Source of the DNA: Candidatus Saccharimonadota bacterium
GTDB lineage: Bacteria; Patescibacteriota; Saccharimonadia; CAILAD01; GCA-016700035
Assembly: GCA_046350755.1 (NCBI GenBank)
Contig: JAXLZV010000002.1
Location: 19,379 to 83,378, forward strand
Length of the DNA stretch: 64,000 nucleotides
Reading direction: 5' to 3'
Part shown: positions 1,364 through 53,381 of the stretch, one piece after another
Layout: every line of letters starts with the position of its first letter
Position numbering within the stretch: the first letter of the stretch is position 1
Program-made: the position numbers and the translations under genes
The notes under the pieces: generated by a model
Databases searched by the model: none
The model's input: only the letters and a program-made list of their open reading frames with translations
Told to the model about the DNA's origin: nothing

Positions 1364-1376
1364 TATACTGAGTGCA

Positions 1377-1835
1377 ATGAGGGTAAACACTACTGGCGAG
1401 ATCACCGCGGCCTATCCGCAGTTTCGCTTCGAATCAGCCGATGAGTTCTGTTACGACGCCGCCGCTGACGTTATCTATTTCGATGAACGAACGCTCGAGT
1501 CTGAATCAGGTCGACTCAGCCTCCTCCACGAAATTGCCCACGCCGAACTCGCCCATTTTGATTTTCAGACCGATTTTGAACTATTTGCGATGGAAACCCG
1601 GGCTTGGGCCCGAACGCGTGATTTGGCCCATTCCTATGGAGTAGATTGCTCGGAGCAATTTATTATCGATTGCCTCACTAGCTACGCCGATTGGGTCACC
1701 GAGCGAGCCACCTGTCCGGCCTGCGAAAATTTCTCACTCCAACAAGATGCAACTACCTATCGCTGCTTCCGCTGTCAAACGCGCTGGCATATCGAAACCG
1801 ATGCCAAAAATCGCGTCCGCCGCGTGAAGCTGTAA
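1377..1835 (+). CDS. Hypothetical zincin-like protein with an HExxH motif ('HEIAHAELAH') and a C-terminal Cys4 zinc-ribbon (CPAC...CFRC)
   Basis: The ORF track gives 1338..1835. The start was moved to the internal ATG (MRVNTTGE) to avoid overlap with the upstream gene. HExxH plus CxxC...CxxC motifs were read directly from the translation. Confidence 0.4.
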   Translation: MRVNTTGEITAAYPQFRFESADEFCYDAAADVIYFDERTLESESGRLSLLHEIAHAELAHFDFQTDFELFAMETRAWARTRDLAHSYGVDCSEQFIIDCLTSYADWVTERATCPACENFSLQQDATTYRCFRCQTRWHIETDAKNRVRRVKL

Positions 1836-1848
1836 TTAAACCCTCAAC

Positions 1849-1876
1849 AAAAAAGACCTCCGAAGAGGTCTTTTTT
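1849..1876. terminator. Bidirectional Rho-independent terminator between convergent genes
   Basis: An A-run (1849-1854) precedes the hairpin GACCTC-cgaa-GAGGTC (1855-1870), followed by TTTTTT (1871-1876). It lies between the stop of the 1377..1835 gene (1835) and the stop of the minus-strand 1891..2085 gene. Confidence 0.7.
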
Positions 1877-1890
1877 AATCGAAAGAATAC

Positions 1891-2085
1891 TTACTTAGCT
1901 TCAGCCTTCTTACGAGCTCGGCCACCTTTGGCGCCGGCAATGCGGGCTAGCTCAGGGTTAGCGGCAAAACCACCACCTGTGCTTTTCTTACCACCGATCG
2001 CACCGATGCGAACGTAAAAAGCCTTACCGTAACGTTTCTTGTTAGTTTCAGCGGCCTTGCGACCACCTTCGATTGTTCCTGGCAT
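1891..2085 (-). CDS. Small KGG-repeat stress-induced protein (YciG-like)
   Basis: The 64 aa Gly/Lys-rich protein has repeated 'GGKK/GGRK...GG' units and an 'ANPELARIAGAKGG' segment typical of KGG-motif stress proteins. A perfect AAGGAGG Shine-Dalgarno sequence lies 5 nt upstream of the ATG. Confidence 0.45.
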   Translation of the reverse strand: MPGTIEGGRKAAETNKKRYGKAFYVRIGAIGGKKSTGGGFAANPELARIAGAKGGRARKKAEAK

Positions 2086-2217
2086 GCGTGCCTCCTTATG
2101 ATTAGTGTCATAAAAAGAGCTCGCTGCGCATGAAGCCGACCCTCCACGGTCAGCACAGTGTAACTCCGCCCTTTCATCGGAAGCGTGGAGCTTCTTCCGA
2201 AACGGTTATGCAGAGAT

Positions 2218-2246
2218 ATTCTATCAGCTTAAGCTTTATCTGTCAA
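2218..2246 (-). promoter_or_regulatory. Sigma70-type promoter (TTGACA-17 nt-TAGAAT) driving the KGG gene through a ~125 nt leader
   Basis: Minus-strand reading: TTGACAgataaagcttaagctgaTAGAAT. The -35 box is at 2241-2246, the -10 box at 2218-2223, and the spacer is 17 nt. The gene starts at 2085. Confidence 0.5.
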
Positions 2247-2280
2247 TACTTTTATGCTGCGAATACTTGAGTCAAAATTA

Positions 2281-3363
2281 TTAGAGCTGTGAGACAGTAA
2301 AGTCATCAAAGTTGAAGTTCGCATAATCACCGCGCACACCCACCTGACCGCTACTACGCAGTGGTGTGTAGGCAGCGGTTGAATACTTCCCTGGCGTCGA
2401 GCAACCACTCGACCAGCTTGGGTTAGTGCCACCGGCATCAGTTCCAGTTACCAATGGTGTCGTGCCACTCTTATTCAAATCGTAGAGCTTCAGACCCACG
2501 CTACCATCAGCATTATCAACAACGGTTAGACTGTAGCGGTTCCATTGCCCAACTGACCAGTTATTTGGCACATAATTACCAAGTACAAAATAGGTACCCG
2601 AGTTATCCGAGCCACACGGCACTTTTCGCTTCAAGACAACATTACCATCCGCCCGATTAACCGAGGCGTAGTAGAGATTATATTGACTCTGATAGCGTGC
2701 CCAAATGTGGGTCCCGTGCCAGCAGGTATCGTTAGCATTACAGTTCGCGTCATGAATGTCAGTATTTTGCCGCAAACTCAGGTCGATCTGGATATTGCCT
2801 GAGTAGGACTGTTTGGTATTGAGACGAAAGATCGAAGAGTTATTACAATTACTCGAAGTCGCATTCGGATCGACTGAGCCACCGCTACAATCATCCGGGA
2901 CTCCGGTCCAAGCTGTCTGGTTTTGCGCAAACAGCGAGCCGCTCGTCATATCCCAGAGGGTACTTGGCTTCGCATCCACTGCGCCTAAATTCCAATGCGT
3001 GTACTCGCCCGTAATCAAACCGTTACTATAATTGTTAAAGTTTTCGAAGAGTAAGGTAGCTACTGGAGTGGGGCTGATGGTAGTCGGCGCAGGTGCTAAA
3101 AATTCAACATAGCTCCCACCAGATGCATCGCTCGCGGCTGCACCAGTGACCACCTTCACATTACCCCCAGTAGCTGGCCAAGTCTCGACCTCAGTAGCGA
3201 TCAGGCTACCCGCAAAGACTCGCCAGATGACAAAACCGCCTAGCACCAGTATAAGTCCAAGAACTACCGCTAGCTGAGCCTTTGAGGCCTTAAAGGGAGC
3301 CGTGAGACCCGACTGGGTCTTTGAGCGGGCGACATTACTTTTGCGGGTAGTTTTTGTAGTCAT
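2281..3363 (-). CDS. Secreted protein of the paralog family, N-module type: Lys/Arg-rich N-terminus, one transmembrane helix, an 'ETWPATGG...YVEFLAP' module, and a C-terminal domain of unknown (possibly carbohydrate-binding) function
   Basis: The start is set to the internal ATG (MTTKTTRKSNVARSK...), which aligns with paralogs 4163..5695 and 16308..17600. The ORF track extends to 3387 only through a TTG start. The product has no C-terminal CFLIWCW tag. Confidence 0.55.
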   Translation of the reverse strand: MTTKTTRKSNVARSKTQSGLTAPFKASKAQLAVVLGLILVLGGFVIWRVFAGSLIATEVETWPATGGNVKVVTGAAASDASGGSYVEFLAPAPTTISPTPVATLLFENFNNYSNGLITGEYTHWNLGAVDAKPSTLWDMTSGSLFAQNQTAWTGVPDDCSGGSVDPNATSSNCNNSSIFRLNTKQSYSGNIQIDLSLRQNTDIHDANCNANDTCWHGTHIWARYQSQYNLYYASVNRADGNVVLKRKVPCGSDNSGTYFVLGNYVPNNWSVGQWNRYSLTVVDNADGSVGLKLYDLNKSGTTPLVTGTDAGGTNPSWSSGCSTPGKYSTAAYTPLRSSGQVGVRGDYANFNFDDFTVSQL

Positions 3364-3377
3364 AGTTTTATCAAAAT

Positions 3378-3411
3378 AGCATAACAAGTAGAATGTGTTA
3401 CTTGTTATGCT
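3378..3411. promoter_or_regulatory. Perfect 13-8-13 inverted repeat (AGCATAACAAGTA-gaatgtgt-TACTTGTTATGCT) overlapping the -10/+1 region of the 2281..3363 gene promoter. It is either an operator candidate or the terminator hairpin of the upstream gene.
   Basis: The arms are exact reverse complements. A candidate promoter TTGACC(3430-3435)-17 nt-TAGCAT(3407-3412) on the minus strand places the transcription start inside the palindrome. Confidence 0.45.
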
Positions 3412-3431
3412 ACTTCTGAGCGCAGCCTAGG

Positions 3432-3929
3432 TCAAGCTTTGGCAGCTGGCTTGGCTGGTGGTTGAGTTGAGCCAGAGCCAAGATCGATCGGCTGAGGGCC
3501 ATGATACTTAGCCTTACCAAAGGCCAAGATCAGTGTTCCAACTGGTGAGAATATGATGAGCCCAAGGATGGCAAATAGCGTGTCCTTGCCGAAGGCTTTT
3601 GCCAAATCAAGCATAATCAGGATCCCAACAATCAGGTTTACAAACGGCACAAAGAGCAGCAGTAGCCACCACCCTGGTCGACCAACAATCTCGAGCATAA
3701 TGTAATAGTTATAGATTGGAATCAGCGCCTTCCAGCCCGGTCGTCCAGCCTTCTCGAAGATCTTCCACATCGCCACGAGCATAATGACCACGAAGACCAA
3801 CATAAATAAGAAATACGCGCCTAAAAACGCGCCTAGCCCAGCTGCTTGCGCACCCGATAATTCGGTTGTCGTGGCATAGTCATAGCTATCAAAGCTCGTC
3901 TCTGCCAATTGCATAAATACTGATAACAT
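3432..3929 (-). CDS. Small polytopic membrane protein (4 predicted transmembrane helices; conserved 'WKIFEKAGRPGWKALIPIYN...GRPGWW' motif family)
   Basis: Hydrophobicity pattern was read from the translation. A GGGAG Shine-Dalgarno sequence lies 6 nt upstream. The gene is embedded in the secreted-paralog array. Confidence 0.5.
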   Translation of the reverse strand: MLSVFMQLAETSFDSYDYATTTELSGAQAAGLGAFLGAYFLFMLVFVVIMLVAMWKIFEKAGRPGWKALIPIYNYYIMLEIVGRPGWWLLLLFVPFVNLIVGILIMLDLAKAFGKDTLFAILGLIIFSPVGTLILAFGKAKYHGPQPIDLGSGSTQPPAKPAAKA

Positions 3930-4162
3930 AATTACTCCCTCAAGTTATTACTGCTCTAAGTCTACGCTTACCTCTACTTCAGCCGCAAGTCGTCTATTCG
4001 ACCCAGCAGAAGAACAAGAAACAACGCATCGTGGCAGACTTGATGTTCATGGGGAGCCTTTATATCTATTGATGTTATGTATACGTATCTGCCACTATCT
4101 AAACATAAGTGAATTGATTTGAAGCAGGTTTGTATATCCGGTACTTTGCTTCGCTGCCGAGT

Positions 4163-5695
4163 CTACTGCTGCTTGGATTGAAGTAAGTTTTTGATAACTG
4201 CTCCGTATGGGAAAGTTGCCCCCGTGTTATTGTCGGTCACGAGGCTTGGCCCGTAGCAGCCTTCGCCAGAGTCCCAGGCCCAAGACGTATGAGCATACTG
4301 ATGGGTCTCCGCCCAATTAAAGCTATTCGTCACAAAGTCAGTTCCTGATTGGTCGAGGGGACAATGCATCGTACCGTATTCGCCTAGATAGAACGGCATG
4401 ACCGTATTAATATTTGGTACCGGATATGCATAGTCTGGTCCTGGTCCGTGACCGTCTTTCAACTGAGAATCGAAATAGGCTTGCGAGGATGCGTCGCCAG
4501 CATTGGTGCCGCTGATGTCCTGGTAGGCATGGACTGATGCTGCAAGCTGTTTCAGCGGATCATTCGGCTTGTACGCACCCATGAGACCAATTCCACCATT
4601 ACCAGCACCAATTGTTTCGTACATAATCACGTTGGTTGCACCGGTAGCTCGAATCGTATTGACGAGTTCCTGTGTACCAGCAATATGAAGTGTTTTACCC
4701 ACATTAGCGAGCGCCACTGTACGACCATCGCTGGCAGTGTATATATAGTCACCCCCATCTCGGGCGAGCTTCCAGCCCCATTCTTCGGCCGCCCAATAGT
4801 TACCGCTCACGATACTACTCGGACAGCCACTACCAGTTCGGCACCAAATGGTTGGCTCATTGTAGAGGTCAAAGGCAACGTTCGGATACGCCTTATAGGC
4901 TGTGGCAACCTGCTGCCAGAATGGTATTGAGTGCTCTTTATTTGGGCCAACATCCATGCCGTTGTAGTCGCCATTATAGCTATTTTTTCCAGGTAGCCAA
5001 TCACTAAAGCCGGTTGACCACTGTAAGTCGAGAACAACATACATACCCTGGGCACTCAGCTTATCGACCACACGCTTTAAGAATGCTTGATAATTCGCAC
5101 CCGCGTAGGCAGCCGGTGCACCATTGATACCAAGCCAACATTCTTCATGTAAGGGCAAGCGGACAGTATTGATCGCATGGCCACCCTTTGATGTATTGTC
5201 CCAATTTAGCAGAGACGTCGCCACCGTATCGGCATAAGCTAGCTGAGTGGCGTTATTTGTACCACCTTGATCAGTAATAAATTTATTCTGTTGAGTGCAT
5301 GCGAACTCCATGCCGGCTCGATTGATGCCACGTGGTGTGATCACTTTGCCGCTACCATCGACGAACTTGTCTCCAGACACTCTTAGCACCGGTGCCCCTG
5401 ATGGTACAGGTGTAACAGTTGGTGTGAGAAACTCTAAATAGCTCCCACCCGAGGCGGTATTATCGGCGACGGTCTTAGTATTCCCACCACTGGCTGGCCA
5501 AGTCTCAACTTCGGTTTGGCTGGTAGCGGCCAGGACGCGCCAGACAATGATGCCACCGATGACGAGGATTAAGCCAATGACGATCGCTAGTTGTGACTTA
5601 GAGAACCTAAACTTAGCATTCAGAGCTGACTTACTCCTGGGCCGAGCGACGTTGCTCTTGCGAGTGGAGGTTTTGCGGATAGTTTGAGCGGCCAT
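4163..5695 (-). CDS. Secreted GH5-family glycoside hydrolase (cellulase/mannanase-like), N-module type paralog
   Basis: GH5 catalytic signatures are present: acid/base 'VAFDLYNEPT' (NEP) and nucleophile 'FYLGEYGT'. The N-terminus is MAAQTIRKTSTRKSNVARPRSK plus a transmembrane helix plus the 'ETWPASGG...YLEFLTP' module. Confidence 0.75.
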   Translation of the reverse strand: MAAQTIRKTSTRKSNVARPRSKSALNAKFRFSKSQLAIVIGLILVIGGIIVWRVLAATSQTEVETWPASGGNTKTVADNTASGGSYLEFLTPTVTPVPSGAPVLRVSGDKFVDGSGKVITPRGINRAGMEFACTQQNKFITDQGGTNNATQLAYADTVATSLLNWDNTSKGGHAINTVRLPLHEECWLGINGAPAAYAGANYQAFLKRVVDKLSAQGMYVVLDLQWSTGFSDWLPGKNSYNGDYNGMDVGPNKEHSIPFWQQVATAYKAYPNVAFDLYNEPTIWCRTGSGCPSSIVSGNYWAAEEWGWKLARDGGDYIYTASDGRTVALANVGKTLHIAGTQELVNTIRATGATNVIMYETIGAGNGGIGLMGAYKPNDPLKQLAASVHAYQDISGTNAGDASSQAYFDSQLKDGHGPGPDYAYPVPNINTVMPFYLGEYGTMHCPLDQSGTDFVTNSFNWAETHQYAHTSWAWDSGEGCYGPSLVTDNNTGATFPYGAVIKNLLQSKQQ

Positions 5696-5784: not shown

Positions 5785-5794
5785 TTGATGAAAA

Positions 5795-5909
5795 TCCGGC
5801 ACTGCGCTACTTTCCCGGGGTTACCAGTATCATCGCCGCAGGAGGGCTTAACTGCTGTGTTCGGTATGGGAACAGGTGGATCCCCTCCGCCATAAGCACC
5901 GGCCATAAT
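5795..5909 (-). rRNA. rrf: 5S rRNA
   Basis: The reverse complement aligns with the bacterial 5S consensus (GGCCGGTG...CCACCTG.TCCCATACCGAACACAG...). The length is ~114 nt and it sits immediately 3' of the 23S. Confidence 0.8.
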
Positions 5910-6077
5910 CCTCACAGAAAGGACTCTGGCCGGCACCCATGGGTGCCTCTTTTGCAGTTCATAAACTGCCAAATTCTTACAAAGTGTGTGATCCTTTTTC
6001 TGGAATATGATAGACGCGCTATGCGTGTCAGTCAGTTCCTTACTGTACGTTGCCAGACAAGCTGATCACGTACAGTC

Positions 6078-9367
<3,290 letters not shown>

Positions 9368-9605
9368 TTTTTCTCTCTATGGAGTGACTGACACGCAAAG
9401 CGTATCGTCTTATCCGAAAAAGAAATCACAATATTTTTTACCCTTTTTCTCGTAAGTATGAAGTTGTGAACGTTCGATACAAAAAAGCGTGGTATCTACC
9501 GGAGACAACCACGCGTGAAATTCCAACAAACTCTGGTTAACCGGTGGTTTCTCCTGGGTTTTGTTGTCTACTCACGTGTGGCTGTCCTCGCTTTAGTGCC
9601 TCATT

Positions 9606-28852: not shown

Positions 28853-28929
28853 GGGGCATTAGCTCAGCTGGCTAGAGCACCTGCTTTGCAAGCAGGGGGT
28901 CATCGGTTCGAATCCGATATGCTCCACCA
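28853..28929 (+). tRNA. tRNA-Ala (anticodon UGC), CCA encoded
   Basis: The cloverleaf was read by eye. The acceptor stem GGGGCAT/ATGCTCC includes the G3:U70 alanine identity pair. The anticodon loop is cTTTGCAag. The T-arm is GGTTCGAATCC. Confidence 0.9.
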
Positions 28930-28950
28930 TTCACATTATCTCTCAACTGT

Positions 28951-29027
28951 GGGCTTGTAGCTCAGCTGGTTAGAGCGCGTCACTGATAATGACGAGGTCG
29001 CAGGTTCGAGTCCTGCCAAGCCCACCA
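28951..29027 (+). tRNA. tRNA-Ile (anticodon GAU), CCA encoded
   Basis: Acceptor stem GGGCTTG/CAAGCCC; anticodon loop cTGATAAt; T-arm GGTTCGAGTCC. Confidence 0.9.
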
Positions 29028-30108: not shown

Positions 30109-31636
<1,528 letters not shown>

Positions 31637-36073: not shown

Positions 36074-38209
<2,136 letters not shown>

Positions 38210-38265: not shown

Positions 38266-41200
38266 CTAGTCGCGACGAATGCGTACGTAAACGAGGTTTG
38301 ATCCATCCTTAGCTGAAACTGAATTACCTAAGATGGTGCCGTCTGTCGGGGTGGTTGTCGATTGAGCCGCACCGGCAGTCGCCGACGTAACGACCGGATC
38401 ACCGATATTCGTTGGCGTAGCATTAGCCCCAAAATTCACCTGGACGATACCGCCGATCGCTGTGGTACAAGTCGTTGAGTTTGGCTTGGTGACCACTACT
38501 CCAGCGACGCGATTTGAGTTGGCGGTCGCCGTCCGAGCAACTGTATCGGCCCCGTTGAATTCGACGATATCATTAGCCGCCTCGGTGGAAGTACAGACAA
38601 AATCCCGCAAAATAGCCGTCCGCGATATCGAAGTCTGAGGCCAGCGGATATTAAAGCCCGACGAACTTGAGCCGAGCGTAATGACGGCGGCCGTCGTATC
38701 GATATTAAACATGCTCGTCCCGGCAGTATTCTGGACCAGTAGCGCTGCTGCTGAGTTGGTTTGATTTTTGAAAGTCGTCGCGCCTCCATCAGCGATCGTC
38801 ATGACGTTATCATTGGCGACCGATGTATCGGTGACCTGCATGAGATTTTGACCAACGGTAGCACCACGCACATCGAGCTTTGCGTTCGTCGTGTTATAGG
38901 TCCCCCCTGTATTCACCCCCATACGGCCGTTAAAATACAAGTCAAAATTCACGACCCGCGTGCCGCTACTATCATCAACGACTACCGATCGATCTGACCA
39001 GTTGTCATTGGTTCGGATTACTGTGTCGCCATCGACGGAAATTTTATCAAGCACACTCAAACCAGCGGCGAATTGAGCCTGTCCACTGGCCTGCAGATTA
39101 CCCTTAACCGTTATATTTCCAGCTAGGAGCGAACCACCCGAGCTGGCCCCATTGAGAGTCACGTCACCGTTTGGATTTTCACTGGCCATTGTGCCGCCCG
39201 TACCGGCACCAATTAAATCCAGATTGCCATTGAGTCGAGCCTTCGCCAGCTCGGCATAATATACAGAGTTTATTGTCGCATTTGCACTATTGATACCCCC
39301 AAGCCAGTACAATCGCCCATTCGCGATAAATCCACCACCATTTGTTGCTGCCACCGGCATGGTAGTCACCGAAGTGGTCCAGCTACCCAAGGTACCATCA
39401 GGGTTGAGCTTGGCATAGATAATCGAATTGAGCGTGTTTGTGCCATCATTCCCGCCCCAGACATAGAGGTAACCATTAGCCACCCCACTGGCGTGGTATT
39501 TACGTCCGGCGGGCAAAGCAGTAGTCGTACTCCAGGCGCCAGCCCCACCCGTACCATTGATCTTGGCATAATAGACAGTGGTCTGAACTGATGTGCCACC
39601 CTGGCCGCTATAGCCGCCAATGACGTAGATATAACCATTCGTGATAAGCGACGAATGACCAGCCCGACCGGCTGGCAAAGCCGAGGCGCCATTATTGAAT
39701 GCCCACGAACCACCCGCATTATTCCCCTGCCACAGATTTGGCTTGGCCGTATACTGATTCACATATGTCATCGGAAACCCAGATATCGTATCGGTAACGC
39801 CACCGGTGTAATAGAGATTTCCATTATCATCCGTCGCCATGGCTCCTTCGGTAGCTTGCCCACTCGACATCGAAACATTGGCTGTATAGGCAGTCAGGCT
39901 GCCATCGGCTTTCATGCGTACAAATTCCGAGCCATTATGCATATTGGTAGGGCCATTTGAAGCTGGCCCCGTACCATTAAAGCGAAAGCCACCAACCGAG
40001 ATAAACCCACCCTGCACATAGGCTAGCCCCATGTAGGCTCGGGTGCTCCAGGAGCCACCATCAAGAATATTTCCAATCGCCGTCCAGCTCCCGACCGACC
40101 CGTCAGCGTTGACGGTAGCACGAGCGATTTCACTTTCCAGCGTAAACACAGTCTTCGATGCTTGCTGCGTACCACCAAAACGGTATATATAACCATTCAC
40201 ATAAGCATAACTAGCATCACGCAACGACTTATTCATATTGGTGGCGTTCGTGTACCAGCCGCGAATCTCACCCACGGCCGCCGCATTAAAGCTCAATTGT
40301 GGAGTAGCATTACTCGCGCTGGTTCCAGTCTGAACATTTAAGATGCTGGCTCCGCTGGTGTTGAGGATTCTCATCGCTGTCGTCGTGTTGACAGACGGCT
40401 GAATACGAACATCACCAGTATCGGCAACTGAAAACACTTCCGTGCCAGAATTCTGAATAACCAACGACTTGCCGGTACCAGTATTATCGATGACGAGCGG
40501 GTTCGACGCACCACTGGCCGTCACGCCAAGCCGAGCCCCTAAAGCACCGCCATTAATATCGACATTGCGATTCAGCGAATCGACATTGAGCAACGGTGAA
40601 GAAACAGGATCTCTAACCTGAAAAGCCGTGACCGAGTTCGTCGTTGGCGAAAAGAGCGTTGTGCCATCAGCCGCCACCTGCAATACCGTGCCAAGCGCAT
40701 TTTTAAGCTGCAAAAGATCACCCGTGCCAGCTTGGTTCACCACAACCTGCTCTCTCCCAAGATCATTTGTATCTGAGCGAACCATAAGCGCCGCCGTACC
40801 ACCAGTGTTTGAGCGCAAACCTTCATCAATCGTAGCCGCTTGGTTGAGCGTATCTAGCCGAAATATCGGCCGGCCAGCCGCTATGCCATTTGCGATAACT
40901 GTCAACCCAGTCGCACTGTTGGTCGTAGTGCGAGTCAGTATATTTCCGGTTGCCCCGACTGATAAGAGGGTCCTGGCGCTGGAGTCAACTACTTTCAGTA
41001 TATCGGCAGTTTGTCCGCTCCTTCCTGCCACCTTCGCGACCACCGCACTGGCACTCGAGTTCATAAGGGCAAAGTTGGCATTCGCCTGTAAACTCGTTGA
41101 ATTGATAATATAATCATTACTCAACGAAGCAGCCGAACAGCCAGTTATCGAGCAGACAGTCGCGCCACCTATCTTATAGGTCGAGCCACTGGCGATATTC

Positions 41201-43005
41201 ATGACATTACCGAGCGACAAATCTAGCGTATAGCTGGGATTCGACGACGTAAGTACATCGATGCCGACGCGGTTATTGAGCGTATCAACCTTAAAGATAT
41301 CGACCGCCGGACCAAAAAATCCGGGGTTATTATAAGCAACTACCAGCGCATTCGTAGCATTAGCAGGTTTCATCAATGTATCGCCTTGGATATTGACTAC
41401 ACCACTCGGATCCACCTGAAAAACCGCTACACCAGTCTCATCCTCGATCTGCAGCAAATTCGCTGTCTGGGCATTTACCGCCTGAACGTGCCCAACAACC
41501 GTTGAGAAACCAGCGGACTGCATCGCGATATTTGCCGCAGTCTGCATAACAATGCCATTCTGAATGTAGTTGGCGTTACCATCTTGGATCGCACAGGTCA
41601 GCGTGCCACAAATCTGGACGCCGGCGATCAGCAGACTTGAAGATGGCGGCTCCACGTTAATGTCGCCGTTGATGTCCAAGCGATAATTCTGCGGTATTGA
41701 AGCTGTCGGATAGCCAATCGCCACTTGCTCATTCACCGTATTGACATTGAATAGCGCGGTTGCGCCAGCACTATTTTGCACCTGCAAGGCGGCTACATCA
41801 TCACTACCTGGCTGAAAGAGATTAGTATTGGCATTTTCGAAAACCACATTCGCACTCAGCCGCCCATCATCCACTGTCCCAGTGGCCAGGCTGGAGGCAT
41901 TCAAACTCGTCAGATTCGAACCATTCAGTACCGGGAGATAGCCAAGGCCATTGAGCTGGACGAGTTGGGCAGCGCCATTGAAGATATTGCCTTGGACAGT
42001 GACATTCGCACTCAACCGAGCATCAGCTAGGGTACCCGAGGTTAAGGCACTGGCATTGAGGTTGGTGAGTAGTGAACCATTGACGGCTGGTAGAGCTCCT
42101 GAGCCATTGAGTTGGACGAGTTGGTTGGCGTTGTTGAAGGTATTGCCCTGAAGAGTGGCGATCGCCCCATCGAGATCGATGTTGACCGAGCTACCGGAAC
42201 CCCCACCGGTGAGACCAGAGCCAACGGTAATGGTGCCAATGCCCGAGCCACCACCAACTGAACTAATGGTGATGGCAGTACCGGAGGCTGAGACAGTCAC
42301 ATTAGTACCACCCACGATGTCGAGATTGCCACCGTTGTTGACGAGACCATTGATGGAGCTGACAACATTACCCTGGAGAGAGGAGAGGGAGATGGATTGA
42401 CCGAGCCGGGTGACATTGGCACTCAGACGAGCGTCATCGACGGTACCGGTCGTCAGGGCGCTAGCGTTGAGGTTAGTTAAGCGAGCACCGTTACCGACGA
42501 AGGCACCAGCACCGAGGGTGCCGGTGATGTTGGCATTGCCAGCTTGCGGTGAACCGGGGAAGGTGGACTGGAGAGTGATCTTGTTGGTGAGGGTGGCGGC
42601 GAGGTTGTCCACGCCCTGACTGGAAAGCGCCAGATTACCACCGACTACAAAGTCACCATTAACGGCGAGTTGGGAGGTTTGATTCAGTGGCGTCGTGCTA
42701 TTACTAACGGTCTGCGTCTGCGTCCCATCAGGTGCTTTTTGGATGCCAAAAAAGTCGGCTGGCTGCCGCACGAAACGACTGGCATAGAATCGATTGATCG
42801 CCAGACCAATGCCAGCTGCCATAACTACCGCCAGACCAATGACCGGTAACGTATATGCCAGTCGCCGACGCTTCGATATTTTCTTATGATGTCGCCGACG
42901 CTTGACCTCCCCCTCCAGGGCGGCGAGTGAACCAGCTGATGAGAAAGAGCCGCTATCGGCCTCAGCGTTTAAGCTCGGTGATGTTGACTGTGGATCGCGC
43001 TCCAT
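38266..43005 (-). CDS. Giant (1579 aa) cell-surface protein: short cytoplasmic N-terminus, one transmembrane helix, three ~40-aa tail-fibre-like repeats (...LTNLNASALT[ST]GT[VL][AD]DARLSANVT...), long Ser/Thr/Asn/Gly-rich beta-rich segments, a Kelch-type beta-propeller (NGYIYVIGG, NGYLYVWGG, NGRLYWLGG) and a conserved C-terminal domain
   Basis: Features were read from the translation. It is a tandem paralog of 43010..47518 and shares a ~710 bp identical block with it. Confidence 0.7.
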   Translation of the reverse strand: MERDPQSTSPSLNAEADSGSFSSAGSLAALEGEVKRRRHHKKISKRRRLAYTLPVIGLAVVMAAGIGLAINRFYASRFVRQPADFFGIQKAPDGTQTQTVSNSTTPLNQTSQLAVNGDFVVGGNLALSSQGVDNLAATLTNKITLQSTFPGSPQAGNANITGTLGAGAFVGNGARLTNLNASALTTGTVDDARLSANVTRLGQSISLSSLQGNVVSSINGLVNNGGNLDIVGGTNVTVSASGTAITISSVGGGSGIGTITVGSGLTGGGSGSSVNIDLDGAIATLQGNTFNNANQLVQLNGSGALPAVNGSLLTNLNASALTSGTLADARLSANVTVQGNIFNGAAQLVQLNGLGYLPVLNGSNLTSLNASSLATGTVDDGRLSANVVFENANTNLFQPGSDDVAALQVQNSAGATALFNVNTVNEQVAIGYPTASIPQNYRLDINGDINVEPPSSSLLIAGVQICGTLTCAIQDGNANYIQNGIVMQTAANIAMQSAGFSTVVGHVQAVNAQTANLLQIEDETGVAVFQVDPSGVVNIQGDTLMKPANATNALVVAYNNPGFFGPAVDIFKVDTLNNRVGIDVLTSSNPSYTLDLSLGNVMNIASGSTYKIGGATVCSITGCSAASLSNDYIINSTSLQANANFALMNSSASAVVAKVAGRSGQTADILKVVDSSARTLLSVGATGNILTRTTTNSATGLTVIANGIAAGRPIFRLDTLNQAATIDEGLRSNTGGTAALMVRSDTNDLGREQVVVNQAGTGDLLQLKNALGTVLQVAADGTTLFSPTTNSVTAFQVRDPVSSPLLNVDSLNRNVDINGGALGARLGVTASGASNPLVIDNTGTGKSLVIQNSGTEVFSVADTGDVRIQPSVNTTTAMRILNTSGASILNVQTGTSASNATPQLSFNAAAVGEIRGWYTNATNMNKSLRDASYAYVNGYIYRFGGTQQASKTVFTLESEIARATVNADGSVGSWTAIGNILDGGSWSTRAYMGLAYVQGGFISVGGFRFNGTGPASNGPTNMHNGSEFVRMKADGSLTAYTANVSMSSGQATEGAMATDDNGNLYYTGGVTDTISGFPMTYVNQYTAKPNLWQGNNAGGSWAFNNGASALPAGRAGHSSLITNGYIYVIGGYSGQGGTSVQTTVYYAKINGTGGAGAWSTTTALPAGRKYHASGVANGYLYVWGGNDGTNTLNSIIYAKLNPDGTLGSWTTSVTTMPVAATNGGGFIANGRLYWLGGINSANATINSVYYAELAKARLNGNLDLIGAGTGGTMASENPNGDVTLNGASSGGSLLAGNITVKGNLQASGQAQFAAGLSVLDKISVDGDTVIRTNDNWSDRSVVVDDSSGTRVVNFDLYFNGRMGVNTGGTYNTTNAKLDVRGATVGQNLMQVTDTSVANDNVMTIADGGATTFKNQTNSAAALLVQNTAGTSMFNIDTTAAVITLGSSSSGFNIRWPQTSISRTAILRDFVCTSTEAANDIVEFNGADTVARTATANSNRVAGVVVTKPNSTTCTTAIGGIVQVNFGANATPTNIGDPVVTSATAGAAQSTTTPTDGTILGNSVSAKDGSNLVYVRIRRD
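41897..42607. repeat. ~710 bp block identical or nearly identical to 46419..47129. It encodes residues ~130-370, the tail-fibre-like repeat region, of both giant proteins.
   Basis: Identical plus-strand ORF translations at 41951/46473, 42155/46677 and 42410/46932, and direct comparison of the nucleotide rows. Confidence 0.85.
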
Positions 43006-43009
43006 CCCC

Positions 43010-46000
43010 CTACCTCAACCTAATCCACACCAGATTTGAGCCATCTTTCGTCGACAGTGAGTTGCCGAGCATGGCGCCGGTAGTCGGCGTCGTCGTCGAT
43101 TGAGCCGCTCCACTGACAGTTGAAGTCACCACCGGATCCCCAATCGTTGCCGGCGCACCGTTACTCGAGAACCATACGGCCACCACGCCGGCGATCGCCG
43201 TGGTACAGGTCGTTGTACCTGGCTTGTTCGTCACCACGCCAGCTACCCGATTGGAGTTAGCTGTCGTAGTACGCGCCACGGTGTTGGCCGCACTAAAGAC
43301 GACAATATCATTGACCGCTTCGGATACGGTACAAGTGAAGTCGCGGGTAATTGCATTCTGGACCTGGCCAACTCCAGCAAACTTGATATCAGTAGCAAAT
43401 GCCGAAGTACCCAGCACGACTCTTGAAGCCGAGGTATCAACGGTAAACAGACTGTTGCCAGCGGCATTTTGCACCGCAAAAGCAGCTCCAGAGTTGGTTT
43501 GATTACGAAATGTCGTTGCACCACCATCGGCAATCGTCAATACATTTTGGGCAGTCGCAGTCGAATCAGTAATTTGCAAGATATTCACGCCAGCCAGATT
43601 CGAAACCACCGTTAATACAGCAGTTTGAGTAGCCGTTCCAATAGAAACCGCCTTATTCGCCGCATCGACATTAAAGACCGTAGCGCCACTTGAGTCCTGA
43701 ACTTGCAACGTATTCGTACTGCTAGCACTCGTCGCCCGGAACGCAGCATCACCCTGCACCTGGAAGAGATTGCGCACCACTGCACCTCCGGCTAACTGCG
43801 CATTACCCGAGACCTGTAAGCGCCCGGCAGCAGAAACATTCCCCGCGTTCACCGACCCACCACTATCGCCCGCACCAGCCACCATCGTGCCGTTTGAAAT
43901 CCCAATCAGATCGAGTGTGCCGCCGAGCTGCGTTCGAGCACCGGTCATCGTCGTGATCGTGTTTGAATAAATGCCATTTTTCAGGCCGAATACAAAGTTC
44001 GCATAGCCGTTGTAAACCACAACCGGTGTTCTCCCTAATGCTTGCGTAAGCGCCGGTGCCGATGTATTCCAGCTGGTGATCGTGCCACTAGCAGAAAGCT
44101 GAGCGTAGTAGATATCAACCGATGAACCACCTGCGAAATAGATATAGCCGTTCAGCACAAAGGCGCTACCCTGTGACCGGGCAACCGGCAAACTGGTAGT
44201 AGTCACTCCAGCGCCAAGCGTGCCATCAGTATTGGTCGCAAAAGTATAGACTGACGACTGAGGGGTACCGCCACCGTCTTGACCACCCATCACAACGAGA
44301 TAGCCATCAACCACGACCGTCTGGGGGTATAAACGGGCAACTGATCCCGGTAAAGTCGCGGCAGTTACGAATGAACCGAGTGAGCCATCGGCGTTGATCT
44401 TCGCTCCGTAGATCAGATTATGGTTCGCACCACCACCAGTCGCTATATAGAGATAACCGTTGGCTACGACCATATTGCCCGAGGGATGAATATCGTTATT
44501 TGGAATGGTCGCTGACGCCGTGGTCCAGCTAGTAATACTGCCATCATTATTAGGGCGGGTGTAATAGACCGCGCTGGTATTATATTGCGCTACGTAAATC
44601 CGGCCGTTATAGACGACCGCGCCAGCATTTTGGCTACCAGCTCCTGGCAGCACGGTTGTCGTGCTAAACGTGCCGGTCGTGCCATTACCATTCAGGACGG
44701 CGTATTGCACGGTGGTGCTATCAGCTGGCGCTGAGGTTTGGCCACCAATGTGATACAGATAACCATTCAGGGTGACCGCCGCCCCACCCGCGCGCGCTAA
44801 GGCCCCCGACGGCGAACTAGTTGTTTCGGTTGAGAGATCGCCGATAAGTGAGCCGTTAAAAATCAGACTTGGGGTGGAATTCGCCGCACCATTGCCCGTT
44901 GCTAACTGAAGAACTGAACCGCTAGCTGAATTAAAAACACCAAGCGCGGTCGACGAGTTAGCTGAATTTTGTATGCTCAGCTCTCCAGAGTCAAAAACTG
45001 CCAATACAGGTGCACCATTCTTTTGAATCACTAACGAGTCGCCGACGCCAGTGTTGTTGATCATCGCACCAACCGTACTACCACTCGTAGTCACACCAAG
45101 CTTCGCGGCTAACGTTCCGCCACCGAGATTAATGCGATTATTTGTCGAATCGACGTTCAAAATCGTATTTGATGCCGCGTCCTGGATGCGAAAAGCCGTC
45201 GTCGAACCACTTACAGCCTGAAAAGTAGCACTGCCTCCCGCACTAATTGCAACTACATCGATACCGCTCACATTATGCGTCAAGCGCATGAGATTACCTG
45301 TACTATTTGAGTTCACTTCAAAAGCCGTCTGCGTACCAGAAGCCTCGACGTTGAGCACACCACTAGTAGTTGTACCGTTATCCCCGAAAGTAGTACGACC
45401 ATTGACGGTATCGACCCGCAATGCTTCGGTCACTCCATCGCTCCGCAAAACTCGAAGGGCGGTTGTACTGTCGACAGACGGCTGGACTTTGAGATCGCCG
45501 GTAGCGGTCACCGTCAACAACCTCGTAAATCCAGGCTGATCGAGAACCTGGAAAATATCCGCAGTCTGCCCAGCAGTGCCGGCAATCGAAGCTGTAATAT
45601 TTGCTGCATCGGCCGATTGAATAGCAAAGTTCGCAGTTTGGAATGAGGTCCCATTCTGGATATAATTTCCGGATCCACCAGCCACCAAACAGCCGCTGGC
45701 GTCACAAATCGTGGTGCCACCAATCCGATAGGCTCCGCCGGATGCCAGATTGGTGTCGCCGTTAACGTCCAGATTGCCACCTGGCGTAGCGCCGGGAGCA
45801 TAACCAATCAAGACTGCGCCCGCTTGAGTATCAACACGTAGAGTGTTGATCGTGCCAGTTACGTTCTGTACGACCAGCGCTGTGGCTGAGTATTCCGGTC
45901 GTATCAGCGTATTCCCCTGAATCGTCGTGGCACCTGTCGGGCCAACACTAAACACCTCACCACCGAGTGAGTCATCAAGCTGTAGTAGATTTGCCGTTTG

Positions 46001-47518
46001 ACCAACTGCCCCACGAATTCGGGCGGCGATATAGCCAGGGTCAGCCGACTGGATGTAAAAGTTGGCCGAGGCCTGAATACTGGCGGAGTTCTGGATATAA
46101 TCCGACGAACCTGCCGACGGCGCACAACCACCTGACGTACAAATCGCCACTCCACCGATCCGGTAGGCACTACCGGCCGCCAAATTCACATCGCCATTCA
46201 CATCTAGCGTATAGCCCGGTGGCACTGCGGTCCCGAAGCCGATACCAACTCGGCTATTGGACGTGTCGATGCGCAACACATCAGTCGTGCCAGCCGCGTT
46301 CTGTACCCTCAAGACTGCGTTCGAGTTAGCCGTTGGTTTGAAAATATTTTGCGTGTCTTTCAAGGCGACATTTGTGCTGAGGCGAGCATCGGCAACTGTC
46401 CCGCTGGTGAGCTCACTAGCATTCAAACTCGTCAGATTCGAACCATTCAGTACCGGGAGATAGCCAAGGCCATTGAGCTGGACGAGTTGGGCAGCGCCAT
46501 TGAAGATATTGCCTTGGACAGTGACATTCGCACTCAACCGAGCATCAGCTAGGGTACCCGAGGTTAAGGCACTGGCATTGAGGTTGGTGAGTAGTGAACC
46601 ATTGACGGCTGGTAGAGCTCCTGAGCCATTGAGTTGGACGAGTTGGTTGGCGTTGTTGAAGGTATTGCCCTGAAGAGTGGCGATCGCCCCATCGAGATCG
46701 ATGTTGACCGAGCTACCGGAACCCCCACCGGTGAGACCAGAGCCAACGGTAATGGTGCCAATGCCCGAGCCACCACCAACTGAACTAATGGTGATGGCAG
46801 TACCGGAGGCTGAGACAGTCACATTAGTACCACCCACGATGTCGAGATTGCCACCGTTGTTGACGAGACCATTGATGGAGCTGACAACATTACCCTGGAG
46901 AGAGGAGAGGGAGATGGATTGACCGAGCCGGGTGACATTGGCACTCAGACGAGCGTCATCGACGGTACCGGTCGTCAGGGCGCTAGCGTTGAGGTTAGTT
47001 AAGCGAGCACCGTTACCGACGAAGGCACCAGCACCGAGGGTGCCGGTGATGTTGGCATTGCCAGCTTGCGGTGAACCGGGGAAGGTGGACTGGAGAGTGA
47101 TCTTGTTGGTGAGGGTGGCGGCGAGGTTGCTGATCGCCTCAGGAGATAATGACAAAATACCAGCAATCGAGACATCACCATTGACGGCCAACTGTGAAGT
47201 ATTACTTGGGATTGCCAGTGGCGAACTCCCCTTCTCCAGGCCAACACTCGAGACCGGAAAACTATCCGGGTTGAGAGTCTCGCCACCTCGCCCGCGCAAC
47301 CAAAAAACGCTCCCGCCAATCAGGGCCACAAGCGAGATGAGTCCAAGCGCTATGCCAACACGGCGAAAGATTTTTCGACCTCGCAGCTTCGTCACAGCGC
47401 CCGAAGGCTGCGGTGTCGCGGTAGCCGCTAGATCAACAAATTCCGCCGCTTCGCGCGTCGGCGTGCGGTTCAGACTGGTCTCTGATACTGGATCGATTCC
47501 GGGTTGGTTTGGATTCAT
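43010..47518 (-). CDS. Giant (1502 aa) cell-surface protein, tandem paralog of 38266..43005 (transmembrane anchor, tail-fibre-like repeats, Kelch-type propeller, conserved C-terminal domain)
   Basis: It has the same architecture. Kelch-like 'NGYLYHIGG', 'NGRIYVAQY', 'NGYLYIATGG', 'DGYLVVMGG' and 'NGYIYFAGG' are present. The C-terminal ~120 aa align with those of the neighbour. Confidence 0.7.
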   Translation of the reverse strand: MNPNQPGIDPVSETSLNRTPTREAAEFVDLAATATPQPSGAVTKLRGRKIFRRVGIALGLISLVALIGGSVFWLRGRGGETLNPDSFPVSSVGLEKGSSPLAIPSNTSQLAVNGDVSIAGILSLSPEAISNLAATLTNKITLQSTFPGSPQAGNANITGTLGAGAFVGNGARLTNLNASALTTGTVDDARLSANVTRLGQSISLSSLQGNVVSSINGLVNNGGNLDIVGGTNVTVSASGTAITISSVGGGSGIGTITVGSGLTGGGSGSSVNIDLDGAIATLQGNTFNNANQLVQLNGSGALPAVNGSLLTNLNASALTSGTLADARLSANVTVQGNIFNGAAQLVQLNGLGYLPVLNGSNLTSLNASELTSGTVADARLSTNVALKDTQNIFKPTANSNAVLRVQNAAGTTDVLRIDTSNSRVGIGFGTAVPPGYTLDVNGDVNLAAGSAYRIGGVAICTSGGCAPSAGSSDYIQNSASIQASANFYIQSADPGYIAARIRGAVGQTANLLQLDDSLGGEVFSVGPTGATTIQGNTLIRPEYSATALVVQNVTGTINTLRVDTQAGAVLIGYAPGATPGGNLDVNGDTNLASGGAYRIGGTTICDASGCLVAGGSGNYIQNGTSFQTANFAIQSADAANITASIAGTAGQTADIFQVLDQPGFTRLLTVTATGDLKVQPSVDSTTALRVLRSDGVTEALRVDTVNGRTTFGDNGTTTSGVLNVEASGTQTAFEVNSNSTGNLMRLTHNVSGIDVVAISAGGSATFQAVSGSTTAFRIQDAASNTILNVDSTNNRINLGGGTLAAKLGVTTSGSTVGAMINNTGVGDSLVIQKNGAPVLAVFDSGELSIQNSANSSTALGVFNSASGSVLQLATGNGAANSTPSLIFNGSLIGDLSTETTSSPSGALARAGGAAVTLNGYLYHIGGQTSAPADSTTVQYAVLNGNGTTGTFSTTTVLPGAGSQNAGAVVYNGRIYVAQYNTSAVYYTRPNNDGSITSWTTASATIPNNDIHPSGNMVVANGYLYIATGGGANHNLIYGAKINADGSLGSFVTAATLPGSVARLYPQTVVVDGYLVVMGGQDGGGTPQSSVYTFATNTDGTLGAGVTTTSLPVARSQGSAFVLNGYIYFAGGSSVDIYYAQLSASGTITSWNTSAPALTQALGRTPVVVYNGYANFVFGLKNGIYSNTITTMTGARTQLGGTLDLIGISNGTMVAGAGDSGGSVNAGNVSAAGRLQVSGNAQLAGGAVVRNLFQVQGDAAFRATSASSTNTLQVQDSSGATVFNVDAANKAVSIGTATQTAVLTVVSNLAGVNILQITDSTATAQNVLTIADGGATTFRNQTNSGAAFAVQNAAGNSLFTVDTSASRVVLGTSAFATDIKFAGVGQVQNAITRDFTCTVSEAVNDIVVFSAANTVARTTTANSNRVAGVVTNKPGTTTCTTAIAGVVAVWFSSNGAPATIGDPVVTSTVSGAAQSTTTPTTGAMLGNSLSTKDGSNLVWIRLR
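46419..47129. repeat. Second copy of the ~710 bp identical block (see 41897..42607)
   Basis: As above. Confidence 0.85.
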
Positions 47519-47620: not shown

Positions 47621-50035
<2,415 letters not shown>

Positions 50036-52544: not shown

Positions 52545-53381
52545 CTATCTCCCTATTATGATATACGCCACGACAATACTCACCACCATCAGCGCCACAA
52601 CTATTAATATAACCTGGGTTAAACTCCGACGGATCACTCGATGTGAGAGGGGATTACGGCCGAGTGAGTTCATACTGGCGCTAACCGACGAAAACAACAC
52701 AATCCCCGACACCAAGACCGCGATGGCTAACACCATGGCGGCAATCACAGCGTTTGAAGCTGATACCTGCTTCCCCGCAATCTGTCCTCCGAGAGTTTTG
52801 AGGTTTTCCACAAAGGCGTTCTGCAGCCCAGTCGGACCCGACCAGTCGGCAATCTCAATGGTTAACGCCACCTGACCAATCCCAACTTCAGTTGGCTTGC
52901 CCTGCGCATCATTAACGGTCCGTATCTGCGCCCCATTGGTAGACCGCGTGAAGTTGGCCAGCGCCCGGCCAATCACCTTGCCAGAGCCCTTCGCCTTCAT
53001 CGCAAAGCCCTCAATCGGCGAGGCTGTCAGCTGATCGCCAACTGCAATATCACCATTGATTGTCGACACGTTGATCGACACCGCACCACTGGTTGCAACT
53101 TGGACATTCGTACCGCTGCCGCTGGTCGAATAGCTGACAAATGATTCATCTTTAGCCACCACGACACCAGCTAGGGCAGTTCGATTCTGAGGCGTGGCGG
53201 GTACGACCTTCTGACTATCTCCACTATCTCTAGACACCACCGTTCCGGCACTATAATTCTCGTTGGCCGAATAAGATTGCGCAACAACAGCATCAGCCGC
53301 TCGTCCACTCGTTGTCCAAGCGAAAAAGACTACGGCTGCGAGTACTGCCCACAGGGTAAATTTCTGGACTCGACTCCACAT
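52545..53381 (-). CDS. Hypothetical protein in the slot normally occupied by atpE/atpB: signal peptide, ~200 aa Ser/Thr/Gly-rich soluble region, and a C-terminal two-helix membrane hairpin with no membrane-embedded carboxylate
   Basis: Translation was read directly. It is 3 nt from the atpF start. It is not recognisable as an a- or c-subunit. Confidence 0.4.
   Translation of the reverse strand: MWSRVQKFTLWAVLAAVVFFAWTTSGRAADAVVAQSYSANENYSAGTVVSRDSGDSQKVVPATPQNRTALAGVVVAKDESFVSYSTSGSGTNVQVATSGAVSINVSTINGDIAVGDQLTASPIEGFAMKAKGSGKVIGRALANFTRSTNGAQIRTVNDAQGKPTEVGIGQVALTIEIADWSGPTGLQNAFVENLKTLGGQIAGKQVSASNAVIAAMVLAIAVLVSGIVLFSSVSASMNSLGRNPLSHRVIRRSLTQVILIVVALMVVSIVVAYIIIGR

Follow-up and report, generated by a model that had tools for sequence, protein, structure and literature searches.

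We analysed a 64,000-nt stretch of the genome of a Candidatus Saccharimonadota bacterium (assembly GCA_046350755.1, contig JAXLZV010000002.1, positions 19,379 to 83,378; hereafter the window), in which two adjacent genes, A and B, encode proteins of about 1500 residues. Both are probably mosaic, tail-fibre-like surface binding fibres similar to those of phages or to the mosaic adhesive trimer (MAT) fibres of Bdellovibrio, and we favour them, with modest confidence, as candidates for attachment to a host. With their own anchor, in-line Kelch propeller and cement-like tip, they represent a fibre type of an apparently undescribed family: a literature search returned no account of this family, nor of Kelch or tail-fibre-like surface proteins in Saccharibacteria. 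Apart from type IV pili, little is known about how the ultrasmall members of the Candidate Phyla Radiation (CPR)/Patescibacteria recognize and hold their hosts (PMC9894109, PMC12206443, PMC10633639).

A and B are co-directional open reading frames (ORFs) on the minus strand with 4 nt between them, at the coordinates given in an earlier note made from the sequence alone. That note also placed the pair in core territory, between gyrBA and the atp operon, and the neighbourhood proved to be conserved in related assemblies: the order atpAGDC - B - A - gyrB - gyrA is kept in five of them (L001, L003, L004, L005 and L007), and a sixth (L006), which is cut within B, retains part of it. Orthologues of A share 47-52% identity and occupy the same place beside gyrB, and those of B share 62-64% identity and lie beside atpC; in further assemblies the B-type proteins are 1446-1456 aa and the A-type proteins 1516-1519 aa long. 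Full-length orthologues are limited to few species. Because the same tandem order recurs in other assemblies, the pair is not a mis-assembled single locus, a possibility that the earlier note had raised; the two genes are long-standing tandem paralogues of a Saccharibacteria genome. Their GC content is 53-54%, compared to 51% for the window. A scan for promoters and terminators returned promoters at or below chance expectation and nothing convincing upstream of B.

A hydropathy scan detected one hydrophobic 19-mer region in each protein, with K/R-rich sequence just before it. The tails preceding it are hydrophilic, about 50 aa long and end in the K/R cluster in both A and B; the single transmembrane helix described earlier was thus recovered, and the cytoplasmic tail, put at 55-100 aa, is shorter than had been thought. 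By the positive-inside rule the topology would be N-in/C-out, which would leave around 1430-1500 residues outside the cell.

The region following the anchor contains the repeats which first suggested a likeness to phage fibres. In A, an isolated copy of the motif LTxLNASxLxxGTxxDARLSxNV is found at aa ~165-199, and two tandem units of ~52 aa follow ~110 aa further on, at aa 286-389, with the consensus QGNxFNxAxQLVQLNGxGxLPxxNGSxLTxLNASxLxxGTxxDARLSxNV. The count of three motif copies in the earlier note is therefore roughly right, but they are not three tandem repeats of ~40 aa. Next come two modules of ~145 aa (M modules), both marked by a conserved CxxxxC pair and by the signature VGIG...PxYxLDxxGD. 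They were defined from an alignment and with a hidden Markov model (HMM), and are internal repeats that a blastp self-comparison missed. In A, degenerate modules complete the stalk up to the propeller, and stalk sequence resembling the N-terminal part of the M module resumes past it; the corresponding post-propeller region of B gave weak matches to the M-module HMM.

The fold of the stalk is less clear. An AlphaFold2 (AF2) model of B aa 100-905, built from a 31-sequence alignment, is extended, with a mean predicted local distance difference test (pLDDT) score of 59 and a predicted TM-score (pTM) of 0.26. The part of it that matches the degenerate modules of A is beta-rich at pLDDT 50-75, so the beta-solenoid-like character proposed for the stalk has only low-confidence models behind it. 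A monomer model of such low confidence is what would be expected of an obligate oligomer, yet it proves nothing; the assembled state would probably be trimeric. No relevant PDB entry came up at E up to 10 when profiles of the proximal region and of the stalk were searched, structure searches of the PDB with the stalk model gave no match (the MAT fibre Bd1334, 8oml, appeared at a non-significant Foldseek E of 0.86), and an NCBIfam scan of full-length A and B gave no matches.

The Kelch-type propeller, by comparison, is well defined, as the earlier note had predicted, and sequence and model agree on it. Both proteins exceed the Pfam cut-off of 20.1 for Kelch_1, B with 30.0 bits and A with 21.3, and a family profile retrieved designed and natural Kelch domains from the PDB at E 7.5e-22 to 1e-15, the full range of PDB Kelch matches reaching 1e-9. 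Six blade motifs can be counted in A. AF2 models A aa ~910-1255 with a pLDDT of ~90, and Foldseek matches this model to KLHL12, NS1-BP and KEAP1 at E 1e-15, with template modelling (TM) scores of 0.72-0.80 normalized to the target; when A aa 880-1579 was modelled, the Kelch part alone was resolved. The propeller is in-line rather than terminal, because module-like stalk sequence resumes past it. It shares six blades with a GG and aromatic signature with the propellers of KLHL12, KEAP1 and LZTR1 (Kelch_1, Kelch_KLHDC2_KLHL20_DRC7), but differs from them in being bacterial, predicted to be extracellular, embedded in a fibre and without BTB/BACK context.

The cytoplasmic tails are conserved in their own right. 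A and its orthologues in L001 and L003-L007 share the well conserved motif LNAxxDxGSFxxAGSLAxLExEV(K/H)RRR, and B-type tails have a different one, SLNKxxxSExxEFVSLS. This conservation suggests that the tails may bind a cytoplasmic partner or act as a targeting signal. The conserved motif of the A-type proteins also bears on another explanation, in which A and B are extracellular sensors whose filament and propeller detect a host, a phage or a competitor and whose tail relays the signal inward. Such an arrangement has a precedent in the EsrA filaments with terminal beta-propellers, which are threat sensors in Actinobacteria hosts of Saccharibacteria (PMC13622651). The tail is however only ~50 aa long with no signalling domain recognisable to Pfam or NCBIfam, the A/B propeller is internal and not terminal, and the neighbours are atp and gyr genes, with no kinase, FHA, MoxR or vWA genes nearby. 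We regard a sensory function as very unlikely.

The last ~135 residues, which the earlier note had recognized as a domain common to both proteins, are the best conserved part of A and B and contain two invariant cysteines. This tip appears to be a remote member of the cement/decoration-protein superfamily, to which it is connected via intermediate sequences. Pfam gives no direct PF09956 match for the C-terminus of A or B even at E up to 10. The tip profile does align with a domain of a 2760-aa homologue (P0063) at an hhalign probability of 96 in 100 (95.8%; E 6.9e-9, 36% identity over 126 columns), and that domain matches PF09956 (Phage_cement_2, formerly DUF2190) at 36.9 and 30.1 bits, above the cut-off of 24. 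Searched exhaustively with HMMER and the tip profile, 1.84 billion cluster representatives yielded 747 proteins at E<=1e-3, including 82 at E<=1e-10; among the 150 best listed, the domain is mostly at the extreme C-terminus of proteins that range from ~50 to ~4,900 aa. When 40 small and medium-sized relatives were scanned, 19 matched PF09956 and two matched the XM1_gp53 minor-capsid family. When homologues of the C-terminal 330 aa were sought in a second, word-indexed search, only six fragments came back.

Structural comparison added little to this assignment: AF2 modelled the C-terminal 130 residues at pLDDT <45, a PDB search with the tip gave a single marginal match (the "capsid fiber protein" 6qyy_A, E 0.026), and a PDB profile search with the C-terminal third gave a chance match only. 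Cement proteins have a beta-sandwich/jelly-roll fold. Those of PF09956, to which transitive profile evidence relates the tip, are stand-alone capsid proteins of ~110 aa, whereas the tip of A and B ends a 1500-aa surface protein and has the conserved Cys pair. In the giant relatives P0134 (4696 aa), P0146 (4884 aa) and P0063, the cement-like domain is internal and repeated, a single protein having as many as seven matched stretches and P0063 two copies which each precede a Kelch array; because of these copies, the domain is not always terminal.

Table 1 Features of the A/B locus, with positions in the window.
Feature	Position	Strand	Residues	Details and basis
Gene A	38266..43005	-	1579 aa	MFO0955623.1, locus tag U0526_03790; "hypothetical protein" at NCBI; ORF and exact look-up
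Gene B	43010..47518	-	1502 aa	MFO0955624.1, locus tag U0526_03795; "hypothetical protein"; upstream neighbour of A (4-nt gap)
Cytoplasmic N-terminal tail of A	42862..43005	-	1-48	Predicted; conserved motif
Transmembrane anchor of A	42796..42861	-	~49-70	Predicted; hydropathy scan
Transmembrane anchor of B	47297..47359	-	~54-74	Predicted; hydropathy scan
Proximal repeat region of A	41821..42693	-	~105-395	One isolated motif copy and two tandem 52-aa units
Proximal repeat region of B	46343..47221	-	~100-392	Same basis as A
711-nt block, copy in A	41897..42607	-	134-369	Probable conversion recipient
711-nt block, copy in B	46419..47129	-	131-366	Inferred donor
Two M modules of A (~145 aa)	40912..41799	-	403-547, 550-698	C466/C471, C618/C623; HMM E 3e-55, 2e-49
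Two M modules of B	45467..46324	-	399-541, 544-684	C460/C465, C605/C610; HMM
Degenerate stalk modules of A	40279..40911	-	~699-909	Alignment
Six-bladed Kelch beta-propeller of A	39241..40278	-	~910-1255	Pfam, PDB profile, AF2, Foldseek
Kelch beta-propeller of B	43937..44863	-	~886-1194	Pfam, alignment, PDB profile
Post-Kelch stalk of A	38674..39240	-	1256-1444	Resembles N-terminal part of M module; low AF2 confidence
C-terminal tip domain of A	38269..38673	-	1445-1579	Conserved C1471 and C1513; remotely Phage_cement_2/DUF2190-like
C-terminal tip domain of B	43013..43411	-	1370-1502	Alignment
gyrB	36074..38185			Adjoins A; gyrB/gyrA lie downstream of the pair
atpC/atpD	47884..49200			Upstream of the pair, on the B side

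The proximal part of A and B is shared far more widely than the full-length proteins. A first homologue search returned 207 proteins, nearly all from metagenome-assembled genomes (MAGs) of Saccharibacteria and other Patescibacteria, and most of them share only A aa ~140-400. More than 100 giant Patescibacteria proteins have the anchor and stalk in common and differ in their ends: an N-terminal hydrophobic anchor is present in 88 of 120 homologues and the M module in 73 of 122 proteins, including ones which end in S74 or carry Collar. The distal parts found across these proteins are the Peptidase_S74 intramolecular chaperone, the phage tail Collar domain, CBM_4_9, right-handed beta-helix, collagen and Kelch. 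The superfamily thus reads as a mosaic in which a constant anchor and stalk are combined with exchangeable distal domains. The number of 52-aa units in the relatives varies between 2 and more than 10, which implies that in-frame expansion and contraction may be frequent and would vary the length of the fibre.

Two of the modules in this superfamily have relatives among predicted phage tail fibres. The repeat unit is present in ORFs of three IMG/VR viral contigs; the two which were examined (L088 and L089) both match PHROG tail-fibre families, and in L089 a tape-measure gene lies upstream of the tail-fibre ORF. The unit aligns with a viral tail-fibre ORF at 53% identity over 55 aa (BLASTP E 3e-10; hhalign 96.6%). 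The second module is the tip: another viral contig (L092) encodes a 704-aa protein beside an endolysin, the last ~110 residues of which align to the tip profile (hhalign 92.3%, E 5.4e-7) and match phrog_19602, "tail fiber protein". Because of this alignment, phage fibre-like proteins would also appear to use a tip-type domain as their C-terminal end. The tail-fibre-like impression of the earlier note can accordingly be restated as homology rather than resemblance, given that the repeat unit and the tip align with viral tail-fibre ORFs and that relatives carry S74 or Collar; predicted phage tail fibres seem to have two or more modules in common with the superfamily.

The tail-fibre ORFs of L089 (7551-9236) and L088 (7416-9056) are themselves mosaic: the N- and C-terminal parts have matches in phage tail-fibre or minor-tail proteins (Rhizobium, Sinorhizobium, Gordonia, Pseudomonas and Acinetobacter phages), and the Saccharibacteria-type unit is in the middle. 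The tail fibre of the cultured phage Aussie, reached via a viral ORF, does not have the repeat unit.

A and B resemble phage tail fibres and tailspikes in their modular architecture and Ser/Thr/Asn/Gly-rich composition, and both the repeat unit (here ~55-70 aa) and the C-terminal domain have relatives in predicted viral tail-fibre ORFs. Fibres with Peptidase_S74 include T5 pb1 and K1F endosialidase, and members of the superfamily have S74 or Collar, although A and B themselves have neither. They differ further in being chromosomal, in a core neighbourhood, and anchored to the membrane. We rejected an identity as virion tail fibres for these reasons: the genes lie outside any tail morphogenesis module, with atp and gyrBA as neighbours, and the proteins have a membrane anchor. 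The related idea that A and B are remnants of a prophage tail-fibre cassette and not cellular genes could draw on the repeat unit and tip that they have in common with viral tail-fibre ORFs. Yet no other phage gene is adjacent, the synteny between the atp operon and gyrBA is conserved, the N-terminal anchor is incompatible with a virion fibre, neither protein directly matches a PHROG, and the GC content is near that of the window. We rejected it on synteny and consider it close to refuted.

Among cellular proteins, the closest known system functionally would be the MAT fibres of Bdellovibrio bacteriovorus, chimeric trimeric fibres with and without S74 and with swapped tips, which are found on the predator surface and serve in prey recognition (PMC10769870). 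As is proposed for A and B, these are long surface fibres of a bacterium that exploits other bacteria. Like the A/B homologues, with their S74, Collar, CBM_4_9, Beta_helix and Kelch ends, they combine a constant cell-proximal part with swapped C-terminal domains, and they likewise have S74 and non-S74 members, kinship to phage tail fibres and several paralogues per genome. Nevertheless, a regular-expression scan of A and B detected no copy of the MAT capping-loop motif V-G-G/N-pi-x-x-P-x-x-x-L; their modules have a looser V-G-I-x(6-7)-P-x-x-x-L pattern. Neither was similarity to solved MAT fibres (Bd3182, Bd2133, Bd1334 and others) found in the PDB profile search at E up to 10, or by Foldseek. 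Because neither the capping loop nor the structural similarity was found, we do not count A and B among the MAT proteins. Other differences are the anchor, an N-terminal transmembrane helix in a monoderm-like cell as opposed to the MAT N-terminal domain, and the in-line Kelch domain in the stalk together with the cement-like tip; MAT fibres are trimers, whereas A and B are putative ones.

Several other kinds of surface protein were considered and rejected. No LPxTG is present anywhere in A or B, whose C-termini read ...VYVRIRRD and ...VWIRLR, so they are not LPXTG sortase-anchored adhesins. They are not trimeric autotransporters either: Pfam detected no YadA-type anchor or head in them, and their anchor is N-terminal (PF05658 is found in a few distant homologues). 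Finally, Pfam and NCBIfam detected no SLH or other known wall-binding module, which excludes an SLH S-layer protein. Large surface proteins have been described in other CPR bacteria. Vampirococcus lugosii has giant membrane proteins proposed to give it a fibrous, host-binding surface (PMC8080830), and Southlakia epibionticum has essential surface adhesin candidates (PMC10633639). Like A and B, these are large, membrane-associated and repeat- and propeller-containing proteins proposed for host contact; compared by description only, they differ in carrying WD40, PKD, integrin, VCBS, dockerin and FN3 domains.

Taken as surface binding fibres, A and B could work as follows. Each would be a type-II anchored fibre with its N-terminus inside, one transmembrane helix and its C-terminus outside, formed by a chain of 52-aa units, ~145-aa disulphide-loop modules, the in-line Kelch domain, more stalk and the cement-related tip. 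The fibre would project the propeller and the small beta-rich tip away from the membrane, where they could attach to a glycan or a protein on another cell's surface; for a presumed epibiont, the likeliest target would be a host bacterium.

A and B evolve far faster than the genes beside them. Compared with L001, the window shows 83% identity in GyrB, 51% in A and 63% in B; between L001 and L005 the corresponding values are 95.7%, 68% and 77%. By a crude measure on close orthologues, the ratio of nonsynonymous to synonymous substitution rates (dN/dS) is 0.01-0.13 in every domain and nowhere near or above 1, so both genes are functional and constrained. The synonymous rate is itself uneven: in A-type pairs with L007 (L007, L001 and L004 genes), dS is 1.2-2.9 in the Kelch and post-Kelch parts and 0.4-0.9 in the adjacent stalk, which suggests that the distal part may have been exchanged between strains by recombination.

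Besides the missing capping-loop motif, a number of results weigh against a host-attachment function. The purifying selection on every domain and the fixed core synteny fit a structural role in the envelope as well as they fit host recognition. The tip is usually the most variable part of a phage fibre, and in A and B it is the best conserved. The link to phages has gaps: besides the lack of PHROG matches, tblastn with the stalk and C-terminus found nothing in 50,697 deposited phage genomes, and a pattern scan did not find the M module in IMG/VR viral contigs. In the transposon-sequencing (Tn-seq) tables of the cultured model Southlakia no Kelch or tail-fibre annotation is given, so no genetic data transfer to this family.

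These points are most relevant to the alternative that A and B are structural envelope parts, such as an S-layer-like coat, spacers or self-cohesion fibres, in which the Kelch domain and tip bind the cell's own wall or each other. Their fixed core position and conservation across genomes, the purifying selection and the conserved tip would all be expected of such parts, and two further observations are compatible with them: cement-type domains (PF09956) bind protein lattices in phages, and CPR cells are reported with a fibrous surface of giant proteins (PMC8080830). An envelope role does not account as well for the lack of any SLH or other known wall-binding domain, for evolution far faster than that of the neighbouring genes, or for a superfamily that swaps distal lectin-like and tail-fibre domains in a manner typical of recognition proteins. 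The presence of full-length orthologues in few species only would also be odd for a basic envelope component. We consider a purely structural role unlikely, and continue to favour fibres which bind another cell.

A recent event in the history of the pair appears to be recorded in the proximal repeats. The earlier note reported a stretch of ~710 bp that is identical between genes which are otherwise diverged; it is exactly 711 nt long (41897-42607 and 46419-47129, an offset of 4522), and identical at synonymous sites too. In the adjacent 50-nt windows identity falls to ~50-58%, and further out to chance level. Because the match is exact, synonymous sites included, and the flanks drop sharply, it did not arise by chance. 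None of the six related genomes has an identical stretch in its own A and B, the best blastn match being 65-70% over ~200-575 nt. These paralogues make the term "concerted evolution", used in the earlier note, too strong.

The direction of transfer can be read from the block itself, which is 61-64% identical to B orthologues and 51-56% identical to A orthologues and carries the B-type motifs TFPGSPQ, GAGAFVG and ITISS. Both window genes also have an extra 52-aa unit (A aa 338-389, B aa 335-386), which lies in the identical block and extends slightly beyond it; none of the nine aligned orthologues, of either type, has this unit. At either end the block joins its flank in frame and inside a conserved motif, and the flanks revert to orthologue-like A and B sequence. 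Because the block is B-like and the six related genomes have no identical block, the simplest history would be a single recent, lineage-specific, non-reciprocal conversion from B to A: a unit was presumably duplicated in B, and a tract of at least 711 nt, ending inside the LNAS motif, would then have been copied into A.

An independent assembly which is 99.9% identical to the window (L087; GCA_964508235.1, contig CAZDSR010000030.1) has a B::A hybrid gene at 1152-4871. This joins window 47518-46419 to 42607-39277, with B supplying the 5' part, the block in the middle and A supplying the 3' part; 4522 nt are skipped, and A codon 810 is changed from TCG to the nonsense codon TAG. Two origins can be considered for the hybrid: the assembler may have jumped across the exact repeat, or the variant may be genuine, by unequal crossover or as a deletion or pseudogene. 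Such a hybrid is expected, because a true exact repeat produces such joins, and the same 711-nt repeat could mediate B::A fusion or deletion in the cell.

The hybrid also bears on whether the identity might be an assembly artefact, with one paralogue pasted into the other when similar regions collapsed. The window comes from a MAG, the chimera from the same population indicates that assemblers mishandle the block, and a third contig (P0131) begins inside A, ~530 nt downstream of it. But chimeric joins and contig breaks are consequences of a true exact repeat as well, and other evidence is difficult to reconcile with an artefact. Reads of a divergent A, had there been one, should have assembled somewhere, and none of the seven sequences in the 90%-identity cluster shows an A-type version of the region; the block junctions are in frame in conserved motifs with orthologue-like flanks; and the 96.6-kb contig that carries A and B spans both copies. 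An artefact is, in our estimation, quite unlikely, and a conversion from B to A is the better explanation of the block.

A broader scenario is possible, and we put it forward tentatively. Patescibacteria may have a fibre superfamily of their own which is tied to phage tail fibres, and whose stalk units and tips are swapped among paralogues, strains and phages. A and B would then be the core host-recognition apparatus of this Saccharibacteria lineage, with the Kelch domain and tip as ligand-binding parts, and conversion and B::A fusion would reshape fibre length and specificity. Anchored modular fibres, a family that is widespread and has so far gone unannotated, would supply concrete candidates for determinants of host range, and they would show that phages, predators and epibionts arrived at, or borrowed, one molecular solution. 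Loci of this kind are prone to recombination and easily mis-assembled in MAGs, as the 711-nt conversion and the hybrid contig illustrate. The Kelch propeller and cement-like tip are defined domains that could be expressed for binding tests, and HMMs of the modules would permit a CPR-wide catalogue.

Two features elsewhere in the window are worth recording. A conserved gene for a 277-aa protein is found upstream of the atp operon (positions 1-660 of both L003 and L005; window homologue at 52545-53381, minus strand). Precomputed annotation gives it a weak match to the minor-capsid family PF23982 (XM1_gp53), which was not reproduced in a Pfam scan of the window copy, where only a sub-threshold 5_nucleotid_C match was seen. 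The second feature is the ribosomal RNA (rRNA) genes. The 23S match covers 3293 nt, compared to a model of 2925 nt, which indicates an insertion of ~370 nt; no Rfam intron family was detected in it, and a 160-aa ORF without a Pfam match lies at 6876-7358 on the plus strand. The rRNA genes are unlinked: 23S and 5S are at 5794-9372 and 16S is at 30110-31636, all on the minus strand and ~20.7 kb apart, and protein-coding genes and two tRNAs (28853-29024) lie between them.

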